Positions 10,969 to 18,627 of a stretch of DNA of 64,000 nucleotides are shown piece by piece. The translations under genes and the position numbers were made by a program. The notes under the pieces were generated by a model. The model made no database searches, was not told the DNA's origin, and saw only the letters and a program-made list of their open reading frames with translations. Position 1 is the first letter of the stretch. Each line of letters opens with the position of its first letter. The stretch comes from an uncultured Spirochaetales bacterium (GTDB lineage: Bacteria; UBP6; UBA1177): the NCBI GenBank assembly GCA_902774115.1, contig CACYHH010000002.1, forward strand, positions 115,894 to 179,893, read 5' to 3'.

Positions 10969-11514
10969 TTAGTGATGATGTCCGCAGCCGCAGTTGCAGT
11001 CATGATCATCGCAGTCGTGGTCGTCACAGTCGCAGTCGTCGCCGCACTCTTCGCAGCCGCAACCGCAGTGATGATGAGGGATTTCAACGCCGGTAGCTAC
11101 AAGTTCCATCTCGAAAGTAAGCTCTTTTCCTGCAAGCGGATGGTTTGCATCGAGATAAACCGTGTCGCCTTCGATTTTCGAAATGACTACCGGAATAACT
11201 TCGCCCTGATCGCTCTGCATCTGGAAGATAGCTCCTTCGTGAATGTCTGCGTCTTTCGGGAATTCCGACTTGCTGACATCGAAAACATACTCTTCCATTC
11301 TTTCGCCGTAAGCCTGTTCCGGCGGGATGACTATTGTTTTTTTGTCACCGATTTCCATGCCGATGACACCGTTTTCAAATCCGGGGATGACCATTCCGCC
11401 GCCGACTTCGAACTTTATCGGTTCGCCGTTTTCGTAGGAATTGTCGAATTCGCTTCCGTCTTTCAAGCGTCCGATGTAGTGGATCGCCACTTTGTCACCT
11501 TTCTGAACTGCCAT
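10969..11514 (-). CDS. slyD: FKBP-type peptidyl-prolyl isomerase SlyD with His/Cys-rich tail
   Basis: VAIHYIGRL, IPGFE, PPEQAYG, DANHPLAGKELTF; tail HHHCGCGC...CGCGHHH. Confidence 0.9.
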   Translation of the reverse strand: MAVQKGDKVAIHYIGRLKDGSEFDNSYENGEPIKFEVGGGMVIPGFENGVIGMEIGDKKTIVIPPEQAYGERMEEYVFDVSKSEFPKDADIHEGAIFQMQSDQGEVIPVVISKIEGDTVYLDANHPLAGKELTFEMELVATGVEIPHHHCGCGCEECGDDCDCDDHDCDDHDCNCGCGHHH

Positions 11515-11635
11515 TTTTTTCTCCTCCAAAATATTAAAAAAATCGAGATTTAATCTCAAAATCGCAATATTTTAAAGATTTATGAAAAAAGTGCAAAGAA
11601 TTTAGGCAATAAAATAGGGGCGAGCGGTTATTTTT

Positions 11636-13234
11636 TTATTCGATCGTCGGCTTGAAAAAGTCAAAGTTGACATATTTTTTGTCTTTGCTCTTTCTGACGG
11701 CCATTCCCGGATCGGTTTTTATGTAGATTTTCAAAATACCGTTTACTTTTTTCGGGTAAATGTATGAAACCTCGGCCTTGAAAGCGCGGGTGTCGATAAT
11801 GTTAAGTAAATATTGAGGAATTTTGTCAAAGTTGTGGACATCGATGACGAATCCGCCGGTTATTTCCCTGAACTGATAGTCGACTTCGCCGTCAAGTTCT
11901 ATCGTTATCCGGCTGAATTCGGGGAATTTTCTGAAGAAAATGTTTTTCAGCTTTCCTTTCTTTGCCAGTTTCGTGACCGGAAGATCAGGCAGTTTTTCGC
12001 TCAAAGTCGGTTCTTTTTCAGCTTTTACGACTTTTAGCTGCCTGATTTCGCCGTCTTCCGACCTGACCGCTTTTTTGCGTTCTGCGAGCCGTTTTTCCTC
12101 GGCTAAACGTTTTTCCTCTGCAATCCGATTTTCTTCTTCAGCTTTTTTGAGTTCCGCGAGCCGTTTTTCCGCGGCTAAGCGTTTTTCCTCTGCGATCCGC
12201 TTCTCTTCCTCGGCTTTTTTGAGTTCCGCAATCCGCTTTTCTTCAGCCAAGCGTTTTTCTTCTGCAATTCTTTTTTCTTCTTCAGCTTTTTTGAGTTCCG
12301 CGAGCCGTTTTTCTTCTGCAATTCTTTTTTCTTCTGCAATTCTTTTTTCTTCTGCAATTCTTTTTTCTTCTTCAGCTTTTTTGAGTTCCGCGAGCCGTTT
12401 TTCCTCGGCTAAACGTTTTTCCTCTGCGATCCGTTTTTCTTCTTCGGCTTTTTTGAGCTCCGCGATCCGCTTTTCTTCAGCCAAGCGTTTTTCTTCAGCA
12501 ATTCTTTTTTCTTCTTCGGCTTTTTTGAGTTCCGCAAGCCGCTTTTCCTCTTCCAGACGTTCTTCTTCGGCAAGTTCGTTCATGAGGGAATTGACAAGTC
12601 GGGTTTCTCTTGCAGCGGCGAGACGACGCTTTTCTTCTTCAGCCTTTTTAAGTTCCGCGATCCGCTTTTCTTCGGAAATCCGTCTCTTTTCCTCTGCTTT
12701 CTGAAGTTCTGCTATCCGTTTTTCCTCGGCTAAACGCTTTTCCTCTGCGATCCGCTTCTCTTCCTCGGCTTTTTTAAGTTCTTCGAGCCGTTTTTCTTCC
12801 GCTAAGCGTTCTTCTTCGATTTTCCGCTCTTTTTCAGCCTGTGCGAGACGTTCCGCTTCTCTTTTTTCTGCAAATTTCGCTATGATCGTATCGAAATTCT
12901 CGTCGTCCAGAAACAGCGAGCGGCTTAGACCCATGATAATCGTTCCTTTGCGGTTGAAAAAAGTGTATTGAGCTCCCGGCTCGACAAAAAATATGAATCG
13001 CGTCATTCCGCCGGAAACGCTTTTTTCAACAGATTTAACCATTTCCGGAAGATCTGGCAAAACGGTGTCTTTGAAAGTTCCGCTTGCCTCGAAAACGATT
13101 CTTTCGGGATTGTTCAGGCGGTAAGATGAAAAAGTCGGGTTTTCATCAGAACTTTCGAAAATCAGGTAAAAATTGTCGTTGTCAGAGAGCGTCTGCAGCG
13201 AGAAAATGAAGAGAAAAGCAAGAAAAAGGCTCAT
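11636..13234 (-). CDS. Secreted protein with AMIN-like domains flanking a long E/K/R/A repeat helix
   Basis: Hydrophobic N-terminus, YRLNNPERIVFE (AMIN-like), ~260 aa of AEEKRLAELKKAEEEKRI repeats, C-terminal FSRITIELDG...FVIDV domain. Confidence 0.6.
   Translation of the reverse strand: MSLFLAFLFIFSLQTLSDNDNFYLIFESSDENPTFSSYRLNNPERIVFEASGTFKDTVLPDLPEMVKSVEKSVSGGMTRFIFFVEPGAQYTFFNRKGTIIMGLSRSLFLDDENFDTIIAKFAEKREAERLAQAEKERKIEEERLAEEKRLEELKKAEEEKRIAEEKRLAEEKRIAELQKAEEKRRISEEKRIAELKKAEEEKRRLAAARETRLVNSLMNELAEEERLEEEKRLAELKKAEEEKRIAEEKRLAEEKRIAELKKAEEEKRIAEEKRLAEEKRLAELKKAEEEKRIAEEKRIAEEKRIAEEKRLAELKKAEEEKRIAEEKRLAEEKRIAELKKAEEEKRIAEEKRLAAEKRLAELKKAEEENRIAEEKRLAEEKRLAERKKAVRSEDGEIRQLKVVKAEKEPTLSEKLPDLPVTKLAKKGKLKNIFFRKFPEFSRITIELDGEVDYQFREITGGFVIDVHNFDKIPQYLLNIIDTRAFKAEVSYIYPKKVNGILKIYIKTDPGMAVRKSKDKKYVNFDFFKPTIE
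12071..12871 (-). repeat. Coding tandem repeats (EEKR-type)
   Basis: Repeated AEEKRI / AEEKRL / AELKKAEEEKR units visible in both DNA and protein. Confidence 0.9.
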
Positions 13235-13252
13235 GATTCAAGGCGTTTGTGT

Positions 13253-14080
13253 TTAATCGTTACCGGGAGTGGAAGGATCGTCAGTTATCGTTTCCCATTC
13301 AACAGATTTAGCGGCGATACATTTTCCGTTTGAGATAAAAATGTAGTCTAAATTATCTTCAGCCTGCTTGAGAATGAGGTTTTTGATGTTGCCGTTTGTT
13401 CTTTGCGCATCGCCTTCACCGGCAACTTTTGTGATTTGAAGTGTTCCCGCTGTCTGGAAGTAGTATTCTTTCGCTGCTGCAAGTTCGGCATCGACCCAAA
13501 CCATGACACACTGCTGGCACTGAGAGTAGTTGTCGTTCACACCTGTTCCAAGCTCATAAGTTCCTTCCTTGAGATCACCCATAAGAAAGATTTTTATGAT
13601 ATCGATTGCGTTTCCGCTCATAGCAGGGGAGAAATAACCGTTAATTTCATCGGGATATCCGGACATTGTTATTGTCGGAACTTCAATCATCGTGCAGCCT
13701 TCAGCATTCTGCTCAAATTCCGGATCAGGCTCATCGGTAGGTTCTGGCTCTGTAGGATTTGTCGGTTCAGTCGGCTCTGTCGGCTCAGTATCCGTGTCGT
13801 CATCGTTGGTCGGTTCGGTATCGTTATCGCCTGCCGGTTCATCAGAATCCCCAGTCGAATCGGTGCCATCCGGAGTTGTATCTGCGGGATACGGTGTTGT
13901 GTCGGCTGAATCATCAGTTGAATCACCGCTATCCGGAGTTGTATCGATATCCGATGAGTCTGCTTCAGTGTCAGTTAGTTCTTCCTTATCTTCGTCGGAA
14001 CTGCTGCATGCAATGAACAATGCAAGTGCCGAAAGCAGAAGAATAAACAGAATTTTTTCAATAAAATTCTTACTTTTCAT
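13253..14080 (-). CDS. Hypothetical lipoprotein with D/T/P/E-rich linker
   Basis: LFIAC lipobox, acidic low-complexity tether, C-terminal domain with NYSQCQQCV and YFQTAGTLQIT. Confidence 0.75.
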   Translation of the reverse strand: MKSKNFIEKILFILLLSALALFIACSSSDEDKEELTDTEADSSDIDTTPDSGDSTDDSADTTPYPADTTPDGTDSTGDSDEPAGDNDTEPTNDDDTDTEPTEPTEPTNPTEPEPTDEPDPEFEQNAEGCTMIEVPTITMSGYPDEINGYFSPAMSGNAIDIIKIFLMGDLKEGTYELGTGVNDNYSQCQQCVMVWVDAELAAAKEYYFQTAGTLQITKVAGEGDAQRTNGNIKNLILKQAEDNLDYIFISNGKCIAAKSVEWETITDDPSTPGND

Positions 14081-15632
14081 CAATCAAAGCTCCTTTTATT
14101 TCATTTGCAGTTTTTTTGATATTTTCAAGAACATTTTCTTTCAAAGGATCGAGAGTGATAACGCGGACTTTCGTTTCTTCAGCTACCGATTTTATGACTG
14201 AATCGGGGATCTGAGCCTGCATGAATACGGCTTTTGCGTTGTTTTTCTTTATAAAATCTACAACTTTCGCCATATCGACTGCGCCAGGTTCCTTTCCTTC
14301 GACTTCAAGCGGGACCTGTTTGAGCCCGAATCTTTCTGCAAAATATCCGAAAGCGGGGTGGTGAACTACGAAACTTTTTCCTTCAACTTCTTTGAGCTGA
14401 GCCGCAACTTCATCATTCACTTTTTTGATCTCAGCTTTCAGAGCTTCACCGTTTTCACGATAGATTGCCGCATTGTCGGGATCGGCTGTGGAAAGTTCCG
14501 CAACGGTGTTGTCGGTCATAACGATAAGGTTCATCGGATCGAGCCAAACGTGAGGATCGTGCATTCCGTGATGGTGGTGATGACCGTGGCAGCCTTTTCC
14601 GTTAAGGCAGGCACAGCCGCCGTGTTTTTTGCAGCATTCCTTATCGCCTTTGCACGGACATTCCTCGCCGCCGCACTTAGGACAGCCTTTTCCGTCGTGA
14701 TGACAAGCGCATTCCTTTCCTTCTTCTTTGCATCCGCATTTGCAGTCGGCACAGCCTTTACCTTCTTTGCAGTCGCAACCTTTTCCGTCTTTGCATCCGC
14801 AGTCGCACTTTTCACAGCCTTCGCAGCCTTTTTCACCACCGCAGCAGCCTTTGTCGCCGTGATGGCATCCGCACTCTTTTCCTTCTTTGCACCCGCACTT
14901 GCAGTCAGCACAGCCTTTACCTTCTTTGCAGTCGCAACCTTTTCCGTCTTTGCATCCGCAGTCGCACTTTTCACAGCCTTCGCAGTCTGCTTTGTCACAG
15001 TGGTGTTCTTTGTGATGAGGGCAGCCTTCGTGCATTCCCTTGTGCTCGTGTTTTTCTTCTTTCGGAGCGTCGAATCCCGGAAGAGCGCACGCATCTGCGC
15101 CGCATTCATCTTTTTCAAGCTTTTCACCGTGCTTGCATCCGCATTCCCTGCCTTCCTTGCATCCGCATTTGCAGTCTGCGCATGCTTCGGCACAACCTTT
15201 GTCGCAGTGATGATGAGGATGAAAATGTCCTTCCATTTTGCGGAAATTTATTCCTTTCGCCATATCGGCAAAACGGATATTTTTGTAGTCAGCGGCAAGT
15301 TTTTCGATAGAAGCTGCTTCGAAGGGGACTCCGATTTTGAGGTAAAGTGCGGAATCTTTGAGGTCAGCCATCTTTTTCGGACCCGGTTCATAGGTTTCGG
15401 GCGTGCTTGAAGGTTCCATCATCGTGTTTACTCTGACTTTGTCCTTGCCGACCGTTTTGACTATGAAAGCCTGCGGCGGAATACTGACAGTTACATTGAG
15501 AATGTCCCGTTTTTTTGCCGCGGTACTGGCCTCGCTACTGGCTGCGCTGTCCTTGGAAGCGGTTTTTTCACCGCAGGAAACAAGCACAAAAAGAGCCAGA
15601 AACACAACCAAAATTTTCATGATTTTTTTCAT
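14070..15632 (-). CDS. znuA: ZnuA/TroA-family metal ABC substrate-binding lipoprotein with metallothionein-like insert
   Basis: VLVSC lipobox, VSIPPQ, PETYEPGP, DPHVWLDP, HPAFGYFA, EVEGKEP; Cys/His-rich insert in the loop before DPHVW. Confidence 0.88.
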   Translation of the reverse strand: MKKIMKILVVFLALFVLVSCGEKTASKDSAASSEASTAAKKRDILNVTVSIPPQAFIVKTVGKDKVRVNTMMEPSSTPETYEPGPKKMADLKDSALYLKIGVPFEAASIEKLAADYKNIRFADMAKGINFRKMEGHFHPHHHCDKGCAEACADCKCGCKEGRECGCKHGEKLEKDECGADACALPGFDAPKEEKHEHKGMHEGCPHHKEHHCDKADCEGCEKCDCGCKDGKGCDCKEGKGCADCKCGCKEGKECGCHHGDKGCCGGEKGCEGCEKCDCGCKDGKGCDCKEGKGCADCKCGCKEEGKECACHHDGKGCPKCGGEECPCKGDKECCKKHGGCACLNGKGCHGHHHHHGMHDPHVWLDPMNLIVMTDNTVAELSTADPDNAAIYRENGEALKAEIKKVNDEVAAQLKEVEGKSFVVHHPAFGYFAERFGLKQVPLEVEGKEPGAVDMAKVVDFIKKNNAKAVFMQAQIPDSVIKSVAEETKVRVITLDPLKENVLENIKKTANEIKGALIDEK

Positions 15633-15653
15633 GAGACATTCTCCTTTAAAAAA

Positions 15654-16532
15654 TTACTCGCAAATATCCATGATCTGCCTTGTGACAGATTCAAACTCTT
15701 TTGCTGCCGGATTGCTGTCTGCCGCGTAGACATAAGGAAGTCCGCAGTCGCCCGATTCGCCGATAGCCGGATCGAACGGGATTTTCCCGAGCAGCTTGAT
15801 ATTGTATTTTTCGGCGATCTGTGTTCCCGCGCCGGTTTTGAAAATTTGTGTGACTTTGCCGCAGTGCGGGCAGATGAAACCGCTCATGTTCTCGACTATT
15901 CCGAGAATTTTTATATGTGCTTTTTCGCAGAAGTTGACCGATTTTCTTACATCAGCAGCAGCGACTTCCTGAGGAGTCGTGACTAAAACCGCGCCGGTGA
16001 GATCGTCAACAGTGTTGATGAGCGAAAGAAGCTCGTCGCCCGTTCCGGGAGGCGAATCGATTACGAGATAATCAAGCGTTCCCCAGTCGACATCTTTGAA
16101 AAACTGCTGGATCATTCCGTGTTTTATCGGGCCTCTCCAGATTATCGCGTCGTCAGAATCCTGAAGGAAAAAGCCGACCGACATTATTTTGAGCGCGCCG
16201 AAAGTGACCGGCAGCAGTTTGTTGTTTTCATTGACATTGATTTTGCCGTCCTTCATGCCGAACATCGTCGGAATGCTCGGTCCGTGCAGGTCGATATCGA
16301 GAAGACCTGTCGTTTTGCCTTCCAATGCGAGTTTCATCGCCAGATTTACCGCGACAGAGCTTTTGCCGACACCGCCTTTCCCTGACATGACAAGGATCTT
16401 GTTTTTGATTTTGCAGAGATTTTTCTTTATCTCCTGCCTTGCAAGAAACTGTTCGTCCGTTTCATCCTGCATCTGTTTCTTCGCACTGCAGGTCGTGCTT
16501 GTGCAACTTTCACAAGAAGAGTGGTCAGTCAT
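15654..16532 (-). CDS. Mrp/NBP35 (ApbC) Fe-S cluster carrier ATPase
   Basis: MSGKGGVGKS, IWRGP, DSPPGTGD, ENMSGFICPHCG; N-terminal Cys cluster; ATG 16532 behind GGAGGTG. Confidence 0.92.
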   Translation of the reverse strand: MTDHSSCESCTSTTCSAKKQMQDETDEQFLARQEIKKNLCKIKNKILVMSGKGGVGKSSVAVNLAMKLALEGKTTGLLDIDLHGPSIPTMFGMKDGKINVNENNKLLPVTFGALKIMSVGFFLQDSDDAIIWRGPIKHGMIQQFFKDVDWGTLDYLVIDSPPGTGDELLSLINTVDDLTGAVLVTTPQEVAAADVRKSVNFCEKAHIKILGIVENMSGFICPHCGKVTQIFKTGAGTQIAEKYNIKLLGKIPFDPAIGESGDCGLPYVYAADSNPAAKEFESVTRQIMDICE

Positions 16533-16599
16533 TTTCACCTCCAATCAACTAAAAACGATGGATTTTAAGGAAAAAAAGCAGAAAAACAAGATTCTTTTT

Positions 16600-16677
16600 C
16601 GTTACGTCGTCACCTTGTCACGCCGTTACGGTTTCGCGCCTTCTGCGTTACGTCGTCACGCCGTCACATCGTTACGC
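16600..16677. repeat. Octamer tandem repeat CGTYACGY (4 units + 14-nt spacer + 4 units)
   Basis: CGTTACGT CGTCACCT TGTCACGC CGTTACGG ... CGTTACGT CGTCACGC CGTCACAT CGTTACGC. Confidence 0.85.
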
Positions 16678-17948
16678 CGACGCGGCGCGATGAACCTTTT
16701 TTCCAGTTCTTCCCTGTATTTTCCGAGATCAAGTTCAACTCTGTTGACACCTTCTTCGACCGCGGCTGAAGCGACTGCGAACGCTACTTCGACGAGGACT
16801 CTCGGGTCGAAAGGTTTCGGGATGATGTAGTTTCTGCCGTATTCGAGCGAATCAAGCCCGTAAACCTTGAGAACTTCCGGAAGGACCGGCATTTTCGTCA
16901 CTTTTATGAGTGCCTGTGTCGCTGCCATTTTCATTTTTTCAGTTATCTGACGTGCCCTGACGTCAAGTGCACCTCTGAAAATCGCGGGGAATCCAAGAAG
17001 ATTGTTGACCTGGTTCGGGAAATCGGTCCTTCCGGTTCCTACAATCGCGTCGGGACGGGCAATCTTAACTTCTTCATAGGTGATTTCGGGGTCGGGGTTT
17101 GCCATCGGGAAAATAACGGGGTTCGGTGCCATTTTCTTGAGCATTTCAGCTTTGACAAGTCCTTTGATGCTTACTCCGATGTAGATGTCGGCGCCTTCAA
17201 AAAGCTCTTCAAGAGTGCGGAATTTCGTATTTCTGTACAAAAATCTGTGATATTCCGAAAGATTGTCCTTTCTTCCTTCGAAAAGAACGCCGTCCTTGTC
17301 GTAAGCGTAGACGTTTTCCTGCTTTACACCGCAGTTTATAAGGTGTTTCGCGATCGCAACACCTGCAGCTCCGGCACCAGTGATGACAACTTTACAGTTT
17401 TCAGGTTTTTTGCCCGCTATCTCGAGCCCGTTGAGAACTCCGGCAGCGCAGATAACGGCAGTTCCGTGCTGATCGTCGTGGAAAACCGGAATATTCATTG
17501 ATTTTTTGAGTTTTTCCTCGATTTCGAAGCACCTCGGAGATGAGATATCTTCAAGGTTTATGCCGCCGAAAGTGGGTTCGAGCGACTTCACGATCTCAAC
17601 GAATTTGTCCGGATCGTGCTCGTCTATTTCGATATCGAAAGCGTCGATCCCTGCGAAACGCTTGAAAAGAAGCGCCTTTCCTTCCATGACCGGCTTTCCC
17701 GCAAGCGCGCCGATGTTTCCGAGCCCGAGCACTGCACTTCCGTCGCTGATGACGCCGACGAGATTCCCTTTTCCAGTGTAGTCGTAGACAGTTTCGGGAT
17801 TGTCTTTGATTTCAAGGCAGGGAAGGGCAACTCCAGGCGTGTAGGCTTTAGACAGATCAGCTTGTGTTGCGCAGACTTTGGATGAAACGACTTCAAGTTT
17901 TCCGGGCTTCGGGTTTTTGTGATAACTGAGGACTTCTTCTTTGTTCAT
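16656..17948 (-). CDS. NAD(P)-dependent malic enzyme (short form, no PTA domain)
   Basis: AYTPGVA, GLGNIG, PVMEGK, INLEDI, FHDDQHGT, GAGAAG, MANPDPEI, PNQVNN. Confidence 0.93.
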   Translation of the reverse strand: MNKEEVLSYHKNPKPGKLEVVSSKVCATQADLSKAYTPGVALPCLEIKDNPETVYDYTGKGNLVGVISDGSAVLGLGNIGALAGKPVMEGKALLFKRFAGIDAFDIEIDEHDPDKFVEIVKSLEPTFGGINLEDISSPRCFEIEEKLKKSMNIPVFHDDQHGTAVICAAGVLNGLEIAGKKPENCKVVITGAGAAGVAIAKHLINCGVKQENVYAYDKDGVLFEGRKDNLSEYHRFLYRNTKFRTLEELFEGADIYIGVSIKGLVKAEMLKKMAPNPVIFPMANPDPEITYEEVKIARPDAIVGTGRTDFPNQVNNLLGFPAIFRGALDVRARQITEKMKMAATQALIKVTKMPVLPEVLKVYGLDSLEYGRNYIIPKPFDPRVLVEVAFAVASAAVEEGVNRVELDLGKYREELEKRFIAPRRRNDVTA

Positions 17949-18009
17949 TCTGTTCTCCGCTCAAAAATCAAGAAACTTGGTGAAAATTGTCAAAAGAAGG
18001 CAAAAAAAA

Positions 18010-18085
<76 letters not shown>

Positions 18086-18103
18086 ACCTCGTTGCCGCGC
18101 AGT

Positions 18104-18131
18104 ATGATACTCAAAAGGTTTTGCGTGTCAA
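18104..18131 (-). promoter_or_regulatory. Sigma70-type promoter of the tRNA
   Basis: TTGACA-N16-TATCAT, 18 nt upstream of the tRNA. Confidence 0.7.
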
Positions 18132-18150
18132 GTATTTTGCTGATTTTCGG

Positions 18151-18627
18151 CTATCTTATTCCGGTGCTGCCGAAGCCGCCAACTGATCTTTCAGTTTCCG
18201 AAACCTCTGAAACTATTGAGAAATCTGCCTGTTGAACCGGCGTTACGACAAGTTGCGCGATGCGGTCGCCTTTTCTGACTTCAAAAACTTTGTCCGACAT
18301 GTTGGCTAAAATCACTTTGATTTCGCCGCGGTAGTCGCTGTCAACCGTTCCTGGTGAATTGAGGACGAAAACGCCGTTTTTTGCGGCAAGTCCGCTGCGG
18401 CTTCTAACCTGAATCTCGAAATTTTCAGGAATTTCAGGGAAAAGTCCGGTTGAAACCATTTCCCAGCTTCTCGGATTTATTGAACAATCTTCGTTTGAAG
18501 AGACATCGGCACCGGCCGCCCCCGTTGTTTTGTATTCGGGGAGAACGGCGCCTTCAGCCAGTTTGAATTTTATTGAAATTTTATCTGTGGTTTTCTCTGC
18601 CACCGCGGTCTCCGCCTCTGCGCTCAC
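18151..18627 (-). CDS. dut: dUTP diphosphatase
   Basis: AAGAD, RSRSGLA, NSPGTVDSDYRGEI, GDRIAQLV, RSVGGFGSTG. Confidence 0.95.
   Translation of the reverse strand: MSAEAETAVAEKTTDKISIKFKLAEGAVLPEYKTTGAAGADVSSNEDCSINPRSWEMVSTGLFPEIPENFEIQVRSRSGLAAKNGVFVLNSPGTVDSDYRGEIKVILANMSDKVFEVRKGDRIAQLVVTPVQQADFSIVSEVSETERSVGGFGSTGIR

Follow-up and report, generated by a model that had tools for sequence, protein, structure and literature searches.

The closest described relatives of the protein reported here are the ZnuA-type substrate-binding proteins of ATP-binding cassette (ABC) importers, in which a His-rich loop precedes the DPHxW motif. The role of these ordinary His loops is still debated, and for the loop of Synechocystis ZnuA a regulatory role has reportedly been proposed. 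Thiolate clusters of the metallothionein kind hold Zn far tighter than imidazole tracts do. A two-domain zinc-recruiting lipoprotein is described in the abstract of PMC7858048, and among the titles and abstracts searched we found no description of a Cys-rich loop in ZnuA or of a periplasmic metallothionein on a binding protein. Here we describe a gene in a 64,000-nucleotide stretch, hereafter the window, of contig CACYHH010000002.1 (positions 115,894 to 179,893, forward strand; assembly GCA_902774115.1) from an uncultured Spirochaetales bacterium of the rumen lineage UBP6. The assembly comprises 2.51 Mb in 15 contigs and is 99.4% complete. The gene encodes a ZnuA-family lipoprotein in which the loop is a long array of Cys and His residues. 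An earlier note on this DNA had called the loop a metallothionein-like insert in an architecture that it did not recognise as described; the titles and abstracts agree with it.

The gene and its parts have the following window coordinates.

14070-15632, reverse strand: whole gene, encoding a cluster A-I (ZnuA-family) substrate-binding lipoprotein of 520 amino acids that carries a very large Cys/His loop (open reading frame and translation)
15573-15632, reverse strand: signal peptide with lipobox LVSC and predicted lipidation of Cys20 (read from the sequence)
15237-15506, reverse strand: N-terminal lobe of the ZnuA fold, residues 43-132 (aligned to 1PQ4 residues 1-100)
14559-15236, reverse strand: insert, residues 133-358, from MEGH to just before DPHVW (226 amino acids, 49 Cys, 25 His)
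14723-14854 and 14882-15013 (span 14723-15013), reverse strand: tandem duplication of a 159-bp (53-codon) cassette (132 nt, 88% identity)
14073-14558, reverse strand: C-terminal lobe, residues 359-520 (aligned to 1PQ4 residues 130-286)

The frame is open throughout its 520 codons, and an AAGGAG-type ribosome-binding site lies 8 nt 5' of the ATG. The Pfam model PF01297 (ZnuA) matches the protein with an E-value of 1.7e-64 and 218.3 bits (cut-off 29); the match falls into two parts, one on either side of the insert. The best solved relative of the protein is Synechocystis ZnuA (1PQ4, E-value 3.1e-48). In an AlphaFold2 model made with 67 aligned homologues, the mean predicted local distance difference test (pLDDT) per 10-residue block is 84-99 over blocks 41-130 and 75-99 over blocks 361-520, and long helices (366-383 and 385-416) follow after the insert. 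The predicted model shows the two alpha/beta lobes and the long rigid helix of a ZnuA-type fold. The earlier note's view that the ZnuA frame is intact on both sides of the insert is thus borne out by the two-part PF01297 match and the confidently modelled scaffold. Its extracytoplasmic placement of the protein also stands: the signal peptide ends in LVSC, which we take to be a lipobox of the consensus [LVI][ASTVI][GAS]C, the genes for Lgt and signal peptidase II (LspA) were found in the same genome, and Omp85 is present, which implies a diderm cell.

The insert is dominated by Cys (49), Gly (43), Lys (36), Glu (27), His (25), and Asp (18), while Met, Leu, and Phe together amount to just 8 of its 226 residues. 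Cys makes up 21.7% of the whole insert and 23.8% of its Cys-bounded 206 residues, of which 2.4% are hydrophobic and 0.5% aromatic; the only Cys outside the insert is the lipobox Cys20. The genome background is 1.76% Cys (1581 open reading frames of at least 250 amino acids), and the insert is the densest 226-residue Cys window of the genome, with 36 Cys in the runner-up. Each end is His-rich, and Cys cassettes are nested between His runs. We counted 17 CxC, 8 CxxC, 2 CC, and 5 CxxCxCxCK[DE] motifs, with five six-Cys units of the form CxxCxCxC-x5/6-CxC (CxxCxCxCK[DE]GKxCxC) and other Cys cassettes interspersed. The loop of about 220 residues with 49 Cys, many His and repeated CxxCxCGCK[DE]GKxCxC units that the earlier note had counted was therefore confirmed by measurement. 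The internal DNA duplication that it had seen is real and has a period of 159 bp, although the second copy had been placed about 4 nt off: positions 14715-14830 share 107 of 116 bases with the copy 159 bp further on, and the copies are identical without interruption over up to 78 nt (14749-14826 and 14908-14985).

The alignment to 1PQ4 stops at residue 100 of that structure and resumes at residue 130, and the insert therefore sits exactly at the His-rich loop of Synechocystis ZnuA. The loop-deleted structures 2OV1 and 2OV3 (chain read as 260 amino acids) join the same two points that flank the insert here. In the AlphaFold2 model the pLDDT is below 50 over residues 136-151, 157-316, and 341-354, and just two short helices are predicted within the insert (145-152 and 331-336). 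The insert is thus predicted to be disordered, which fits a region that folds only around metal.

To characterize the insert, it was searched on its own. No Pfam family matched at an E-value of 10 or below, metallothionein and EGF-type models included. A phmmer search of 1.84 billion representative proteins without length limit returned a sole match, from the protein's own family, with the qualification that the composition filters of HMMER may hide low-complexity Cys arrays. Among 1277 shorter candidate proteins there was one match, a truncated ZnuA, and no stand-alone array; a protein atlas gave no usable match. The compositional hallmarks of metallothioneins (about 15-30% Cys, CxC and CxxC motifs, few or no aromatics) are all present in the insert. 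The resemblance claimed in the earlier note holds in these respects and stops at the sequence level, as the insert matches no described metallothionein family in Pfam and is internal to a larger protein, not a small independent one. It also lacks the marks of an EGF-like module, with no Pfam match and 2.4% hydrophobic residues. Six other Cys-rich lipoproteins of the genome contain 9.5-14.7% Cys, 15-25% hydrophobic residues and 0-6 CxC motifs. Judged by composition, the insert is metallothionein-like and unlike disulfide-type domains, because it has 2.4% against 15-25% hydrophobic residues and 17 against 0-6 CxC motifs.

The first metal-ligand position of the scaffold is Glu79 (15396-15398), where PETYEP stands opposite PHTYEP of 1PQ4. 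According to the same alignment, the other ligands are retained as His361 of DPHVW (14550-14552) and His425 (14358-14360); across the 67 aligned homologues His361 and His425 are invariant and Asp495 is nearly so. The replacement of the usual PHxYEP noted earlier was thus confirmed by alignment, but it is not peculiar to this protein: 74 of the 120 closest homologues carry PETYEP and 25 carry PATYEP, short-loop orthologues within znuACB operons among them. Since these motifs are so widespread, operon-encoded short forms included, Glu79 is not tied to the insert. As a side observation, ZnuA-family proteins without the first His ligand form a broad clade with records labelled Zixibacteria, Desulfarculaceae, Firmicutes, and Armatimonadota, some of them in znuACB operons; we know of no characterisation of this Glu/Ala first-ligand set. 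Of the features that mark the zinc-specific ZnuA subtype, the three-His ligand set is lacking here because of Glu79, and the His-rich flexible loop before DPHxW is present, though greatly expanded and Cys-dominated. None of the 15 NCBIfam families listed reached its equivalog cut-off (AztC NF040870, 127.8 against 350; ZnuA NF007091, 108.3 against 268). The protein belongs to the ZnuA family by sequence and predicted fold and is not a canonical three-His zinc ZnuA. Public records name it 'zinc ABC transporter substrate-binding protein'.

The gene is the only one in the genome with a PF01297 match. As the earlier note had observed, no znuB or znuC is adjacent to it at the locus; they are not missing from the genome, however, as its one strong ABC-3 permease match, on contig C1, has an ABC ATPase gene immediately upstream. 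This znuC-znuB pair is divergent from a FeoAB fusion gene and supplies, by prediction, the unlinked permease and ATPase that a cognate importer needs. No ZIP-family transporter was found in the genome. Given the sole PF01297 protein and the one unlinked znuC-znuB pair, the long-loop protein most likely continues to serve an importer as its functional binding protein; this in turn favours capture for uptake over detoxification.

Gene order indicates how this arrangement arose. Outside the genus, in other genera of its family or order, short orthologues lie in the order znuA-znuC-znuB in all four loci examined. In this genus znuA has moved and lies between a gene for an Mrp/NBP35 ATPase and one for an acidic lipoprotein. 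The new gene position is already found in two deeper species of the genus (G025 and G031), whose His loop is about 25 residues long with 0-1 Cys; thus, the relocation preceded the expansion of the loop.

The distribution of the long form was surveyed in 39 species genomes of the phylum, 15 of this genus and 24 of other genera. Long forms (frames of 445-588 amino acids) were present in 11 of the 15 genus genomes and in none of the 24 others. The remaining genus genomes comprise one with a split gene at contig ends, two with the short form, and one (59% complete) without a match. The related loci come from metagenome-assembled genomes (MAGs) labelled UBP6_UBA1177 (rumen, gut), from yak, goat, buffalo, and red deer, and from one record labelled Spirochaetales. 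The 59 closest protein clusters are 372-572 amino acids long with 4 to 64 Cys in total, and the next clusters tabulated (P0060-P0075) are about 300 amino acids long with 1-4 Cys. The homologue search that the earlier note had proposed for length variation of the insert therefore yields a graded series, from the loop of about 25 residues through His-rich loops of about 90 residues with 3 Cys and 25 His (P0050-P0058) to an insert of 275 residues with 63 Cys, the longest among the protein clusters. In the species-representative loci the insert holds 28-70 Cys (8 of 9 measured; L014 not counted). Each insert combines a small set of cassettes, in mosaic fashion, around a core that is conserved, and the six-Cys unit occurs in 0-7 copies per protein across the 59 clusters.

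Independent assemblies also contain the array. All or part of the stretch is present in 20 of the 24 listed sequencing runs, which come from 11 studies of gut metagenomes (bovine, sheep, and others). MAGs of several independent rumen studies and hosts contain Cys-rich orthologues, and the protein cluster P0001 has 10 member sequences on 4 contigs. At the gene itself, contigs of four independent runs were compared. The entire gene, with a related array, is contained in one 3172-nt contig of run X8, from an RNA library (metatranscriptome); compared with the window sequence, its insert lacks 30 nt in one deletion and gains 24 nt in all through insertions. In three independent runs the short-read DNA contigs break or skip somewhere within 14476-14990, with in-frame joints that delete 165 and 303 nt. 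For the parts of the stretch that lack cover in runs X4 and X5 (14476-14987), absence was considered and set aside in favour of contig breaks in the repeats. All length variants observed are in frame. We conclude that the array is real and polymorphic; that it exists is more certain than how many repeats a given strain carries, because the DNA contigs break in the repeats and skip joints exist. Taken together, the feature is real, conserved, rapidly varying and limited to one uncultured genus, with a putative function that we read only from sequence and context.

The explanation that we prefer, with a probability of roughly 0.5, is that the protein is the binding lipoprotein of the cell's sole ZnuABC-type importer and that its loop would serve as a thiolate-based device for metal capture and as a reservoir feeding that importer. 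Rumen fluid is anoxic and contains sulfide, conditions in which thiols can stay reduced and free Zn is very low. A short His-rich loop at the mouth of the metal site would have been enlarged by cassette duplication into a disordered Cys/His array, whose thiols would be kept reduced by the anoxic, sulfide-containing rumen. These thiols would bind many thiophilic ions, most likely Zn(II), in thiolate/imidazole clusters, with a capacity on the order of 15 ions if, by analogy with metallothioneins, about 3 Cys are needed per divalent ion. The loop could then win metal from sulfide and competing ligands where a His loop would lose it, and would concentrate this metal beside the Glu79/His361/His425 site before handing it to ZnuBC; cassette copy number, varying between species and strains, would tune the capacity. 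That the loop binds metal, which metal this would be, that its thiols are reduced, and that ions pass on to the primary site are all points that we infer. A bolder form of the proposal, possible but on the whole doubtful, is that the loop of the sole metal-binding ABC protein has turned into an extracytoplasmic, copy-number-variable metallothionein 'antenna' that takes Zn, or thiophilic metals of another kind, out of sulfide complexes or colloidal metal sulfides and passes them to an importer.

Several observations weigh against capture for import. Zinc is assigned by family name only, since the first ligand is Glu and no NCBIfam cut-off is reached. An array of thiolates that binds very tightly could keep metal from reaching the primary site. 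The genome encodes, on contig C2 (95197-97143, about 19 kb before the window start), a DsbA-like lipoprotein of 648 amino acids with three tandem Thioredoxin_4 domains and the active-site motifs CPFS, CPFC, and CPFC. Two of five scanned Cys-rich lipoproteins have EGF-like Pfam matches, one over the cut-off and one weak. The secreted DsbA-like protein and the many EGF-like lipoproteins make disulfide formation outside the cytoplasm plausible. Column conservation across 57 long-form clusters speaks for constraint on the Cys, at 94% for Cys-consensus columns of the insert (28 columns), 83% for its other columns (136), and 91% for the scaffold (287), but this comparison depends on an alignment prone to pairing Cys with Cys. 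The X8 contig favours the proposal as a hint of expression, not as proof, since RNA-library contigs can contain DNA. Finally, a comparison of the sequences that precede znuC, mrp, znuA, and the malic enzyme gene showed only 9-mers in common and no convincing palindrome as a shared regulatory motif.

The alternative that survives best, although we consider it unlikely, is a periplasmic metal buffer, sensor or detoxifier, in which the array sequesters excess Cu(I), Cd or surplus Zn from supplemented feed. The array would then protect the cell or, when loaded, throttle import, much as in a reported earlier proposal on the His loop in Synechocystis ZnuA. Wei et al. (2007) put forward, in their title, a regulatory function of the His-rich loop. 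A metallothionein-like composition serves this purpose equally well, the high capacity and variable copy number suit storage, and tight thiolate binding favours holding over release. However, the array is built into the only PF01297 protein of a genome in which no ZIP transporter was found, and a sink on the only uptake route seems costly. Moreover, no stand-alone array appeared among the 1277 shorter candidates or the 1.84 billion representatives.

A disulfide-bonded or redox-active array with no role in metal binding, acting as a cross-linked surface spacer or as a thiol/polysulfide buffer, is distinctly improbable. The secreted triple DsbA-like lipoprotein and the genome's wealth of Cys-rich, EGF-like lipoproteins would fit it, as would the tolerance of the loop for large length changes, but the insert departs from the disulfide-type proteins of the same genome in its hydrophobic content and CxC count, as given above. 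Its 25 His stand among the Cys, the array occupies a known metal-binding loop and AlphaFold2 predicts no confident fold for it. Searches of the genome for the membrane partners DsbB, VKOR, and DsbD (DsbD_TM) found none, which counts in favour of the capture proposal and leaves neither DsbB nor VKOR to recycle an oxidase, and the rumen habitat is anoxic.

We think it very unlikely that the array is a largely neutral low-complexity expansion, in which slippage or unequal recombination inflates a tolerant loop. The tandem 159-bp duplication with its 78-nt exact core, the mosaic cassettes with 0-7 six-Cys units among the 59 clusters, and the length variants that co-exist in metagenomes are what such a process would leave. 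On the other hand, the Cys columns are conserved at 94% against 91% for the scaffold, every length variant seen is in frame, and the expansion is held in 11 of the 15 genus genomes. A content of 20-30% Cys would be costly and reactive, which makes drift to it outside the cytoplasm unlikely.

That an assembly or binning artefact made the repeat array is scarcely credible: the DNA contigs of three runs do break or skip inside 14476-14990, but Cys-rich inserts recur in MAGs from several studies and hosts, cluster P0001 is spread over 4 contigs, the single X8 contig spans the gene with a related array, and the reading frame is open throughout.

The genes next to znuA are the following.

15654-16544, reverse strand: Mrp/NBP35-type P-loop ATPase (PF10609) whose N-terminus is rich in Cys; separated from znuA by 21 nt on the upstream side
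13253-14083, reverse strand: lipoprotein with an acidic Asp/Thr/Pro linker and a beta domain of about 150 amino acids, overlapping the znuA stop codon

The Mrp/NBP35 gene lies upstream of znuA in 8 of the 9 related loci (the ninth is cut on that side) and likewise in G025 and G031, and it is probably co-transcribed with znuA. Mrp/NBP35 as a functional partner, and a reading of the array in terms of Fe-S clusters, were set aside because the adjacency is conserved solely within this one genus. At about 16600-16660 (reverse strand), where the malic enzyme gene ends and ahead of mrp, the 14-nt direct repeat GTGACGACGTAACG occurs in two copies with a spacing of about 45 nt.

The downstream lipoprotein gene follows znuA in all nine related loci. 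In genome G006 two homologues are encoded immediately before znuACB, and the genome described here contains four paralogues. The beta domain has four invariant Cys, one pair of them in a CxxC motif, and a pLDDT of 84 in AlphaFold2. Foldseek returned no PDB matches at an E-value of 0.001 or below, and a wide VIA-align search gave a best Z of 4.8, to generic small beta barrels, which assigns the domain to no family. The protein is a candidate that may act as an accessory in metal acquisition.

Further downstream, positions 11636-13234 (reverse strand) encode a protein of 532 amino acids that consists mostly of Glu/Lys/Arg-rich repeats of the AEEKRLAELKKAEEEKRI type, with a weak C-terminal AMIN-domain match; this gene too is kept downstream in all nine related loci. 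An FKBP-type peptidyl-prolyl isomerase of 196 amino acids, possibly SlyD-like, is encoded at 10969-11559 (reverse strand). A scan of 11000-18400 found 12 terminator-like sites against a mean of 12.6 in shuffled sequences, which is no excess. The sole strong promoter-like site of that region (18131-18104, reverse strand, 11 of 12 matches) lies ahead of a tRNA-like sequence at about 18000-18090 (reverse strand), between the dUTPase and malic enzyme genes.

Elsewhere in the genome, Cys-rich lipoproteins with acidic linkers are encoded on contigs C1, C3, C5, and C6 (for example C3:40795-42690, C5:117532-122922, and C1:125360-129250), with 10-15% Cys and up to 176 Cys per protein. So many large Cys-rich lipoproteins are unusual for a strict anaerobe.

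The supply of zinc and other thiophilic metals to strict anaerobes is poorly understood, as sulfide keeps the free ions extremely low, and a recruiting loop with up to about 70 Cys would be a simple and testable answer. If capture for import is right, the loop would represent a new metal-acquisition strategy in sulfidic, anoxic habitats, in which evolution could adjust capacity quickly through the gain and loss of cassettes. Metallothionein-type chemistry would then also have a place in the periplasm or on the surface of bacteria, and within an importer. The natural series of a 25-residue His loop, a 90-residue His loop and inserts with 28 to 70 Cys offers ready variants for dissecting what the ZnuA loop does. 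UBP6 has no cultured member, and any functional handle on it is useful.

Compared with described systems, the protein is closest to the ZnuA of Synechocystis (1PQ4; 2OV1/2OV3) and of enterobacteria, with which it shares the family, the fold, the loop before DPHxW, the second and third His ligands, and a ZnuB/ZnuC-type partner. It differs from them in the length of the loop (226 residues against about 30 unaligned residues in 1PQ4) and in its chemistry, as the loop is dominated by 49 Cys whereas His and acidic residues prevail in the known loops. It also differs in its Glu first ligand, in being a lipoprotein, and in a gene unlinked from znuBC. With metallothioneins (SmtA/BmtA and the eukaryotic proteins) the insert has in common a high Cys content, CxC and CxxC motifs, richness in Gly and Lys, few hydrophobic or aromatic residues, and the lack of a confident metal-free fold. 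Metallothioneins are small cytosolic proteins, in contrast to an internal insert with 25 His in an extracytoplasmic lipoprotein of 520 residues. By analogy, the insert may function as a metallothionein that has been built into a binding protein. AdcA, which is among the homologues of the long-loop protein, and AdcAII are likewise cluster A-I binding proteins with an extra metal-capturing module, a ZinT-like domain or a His-rich tract. The module of AdcA is a folded C-terminal domain with His ligands, unlike the module here, which is an internal, apparently disordered Cys array with no homologue detected elsewhere. The exported Csp1 copper storage proteins share the concept of high-capacity thiolate storage outside the cytoplasm, which would apply here by analogy; Csp proteins are folded, Cys-lined four-helix bundles, whereas the insert has two short predicted helices and no Pfam match.

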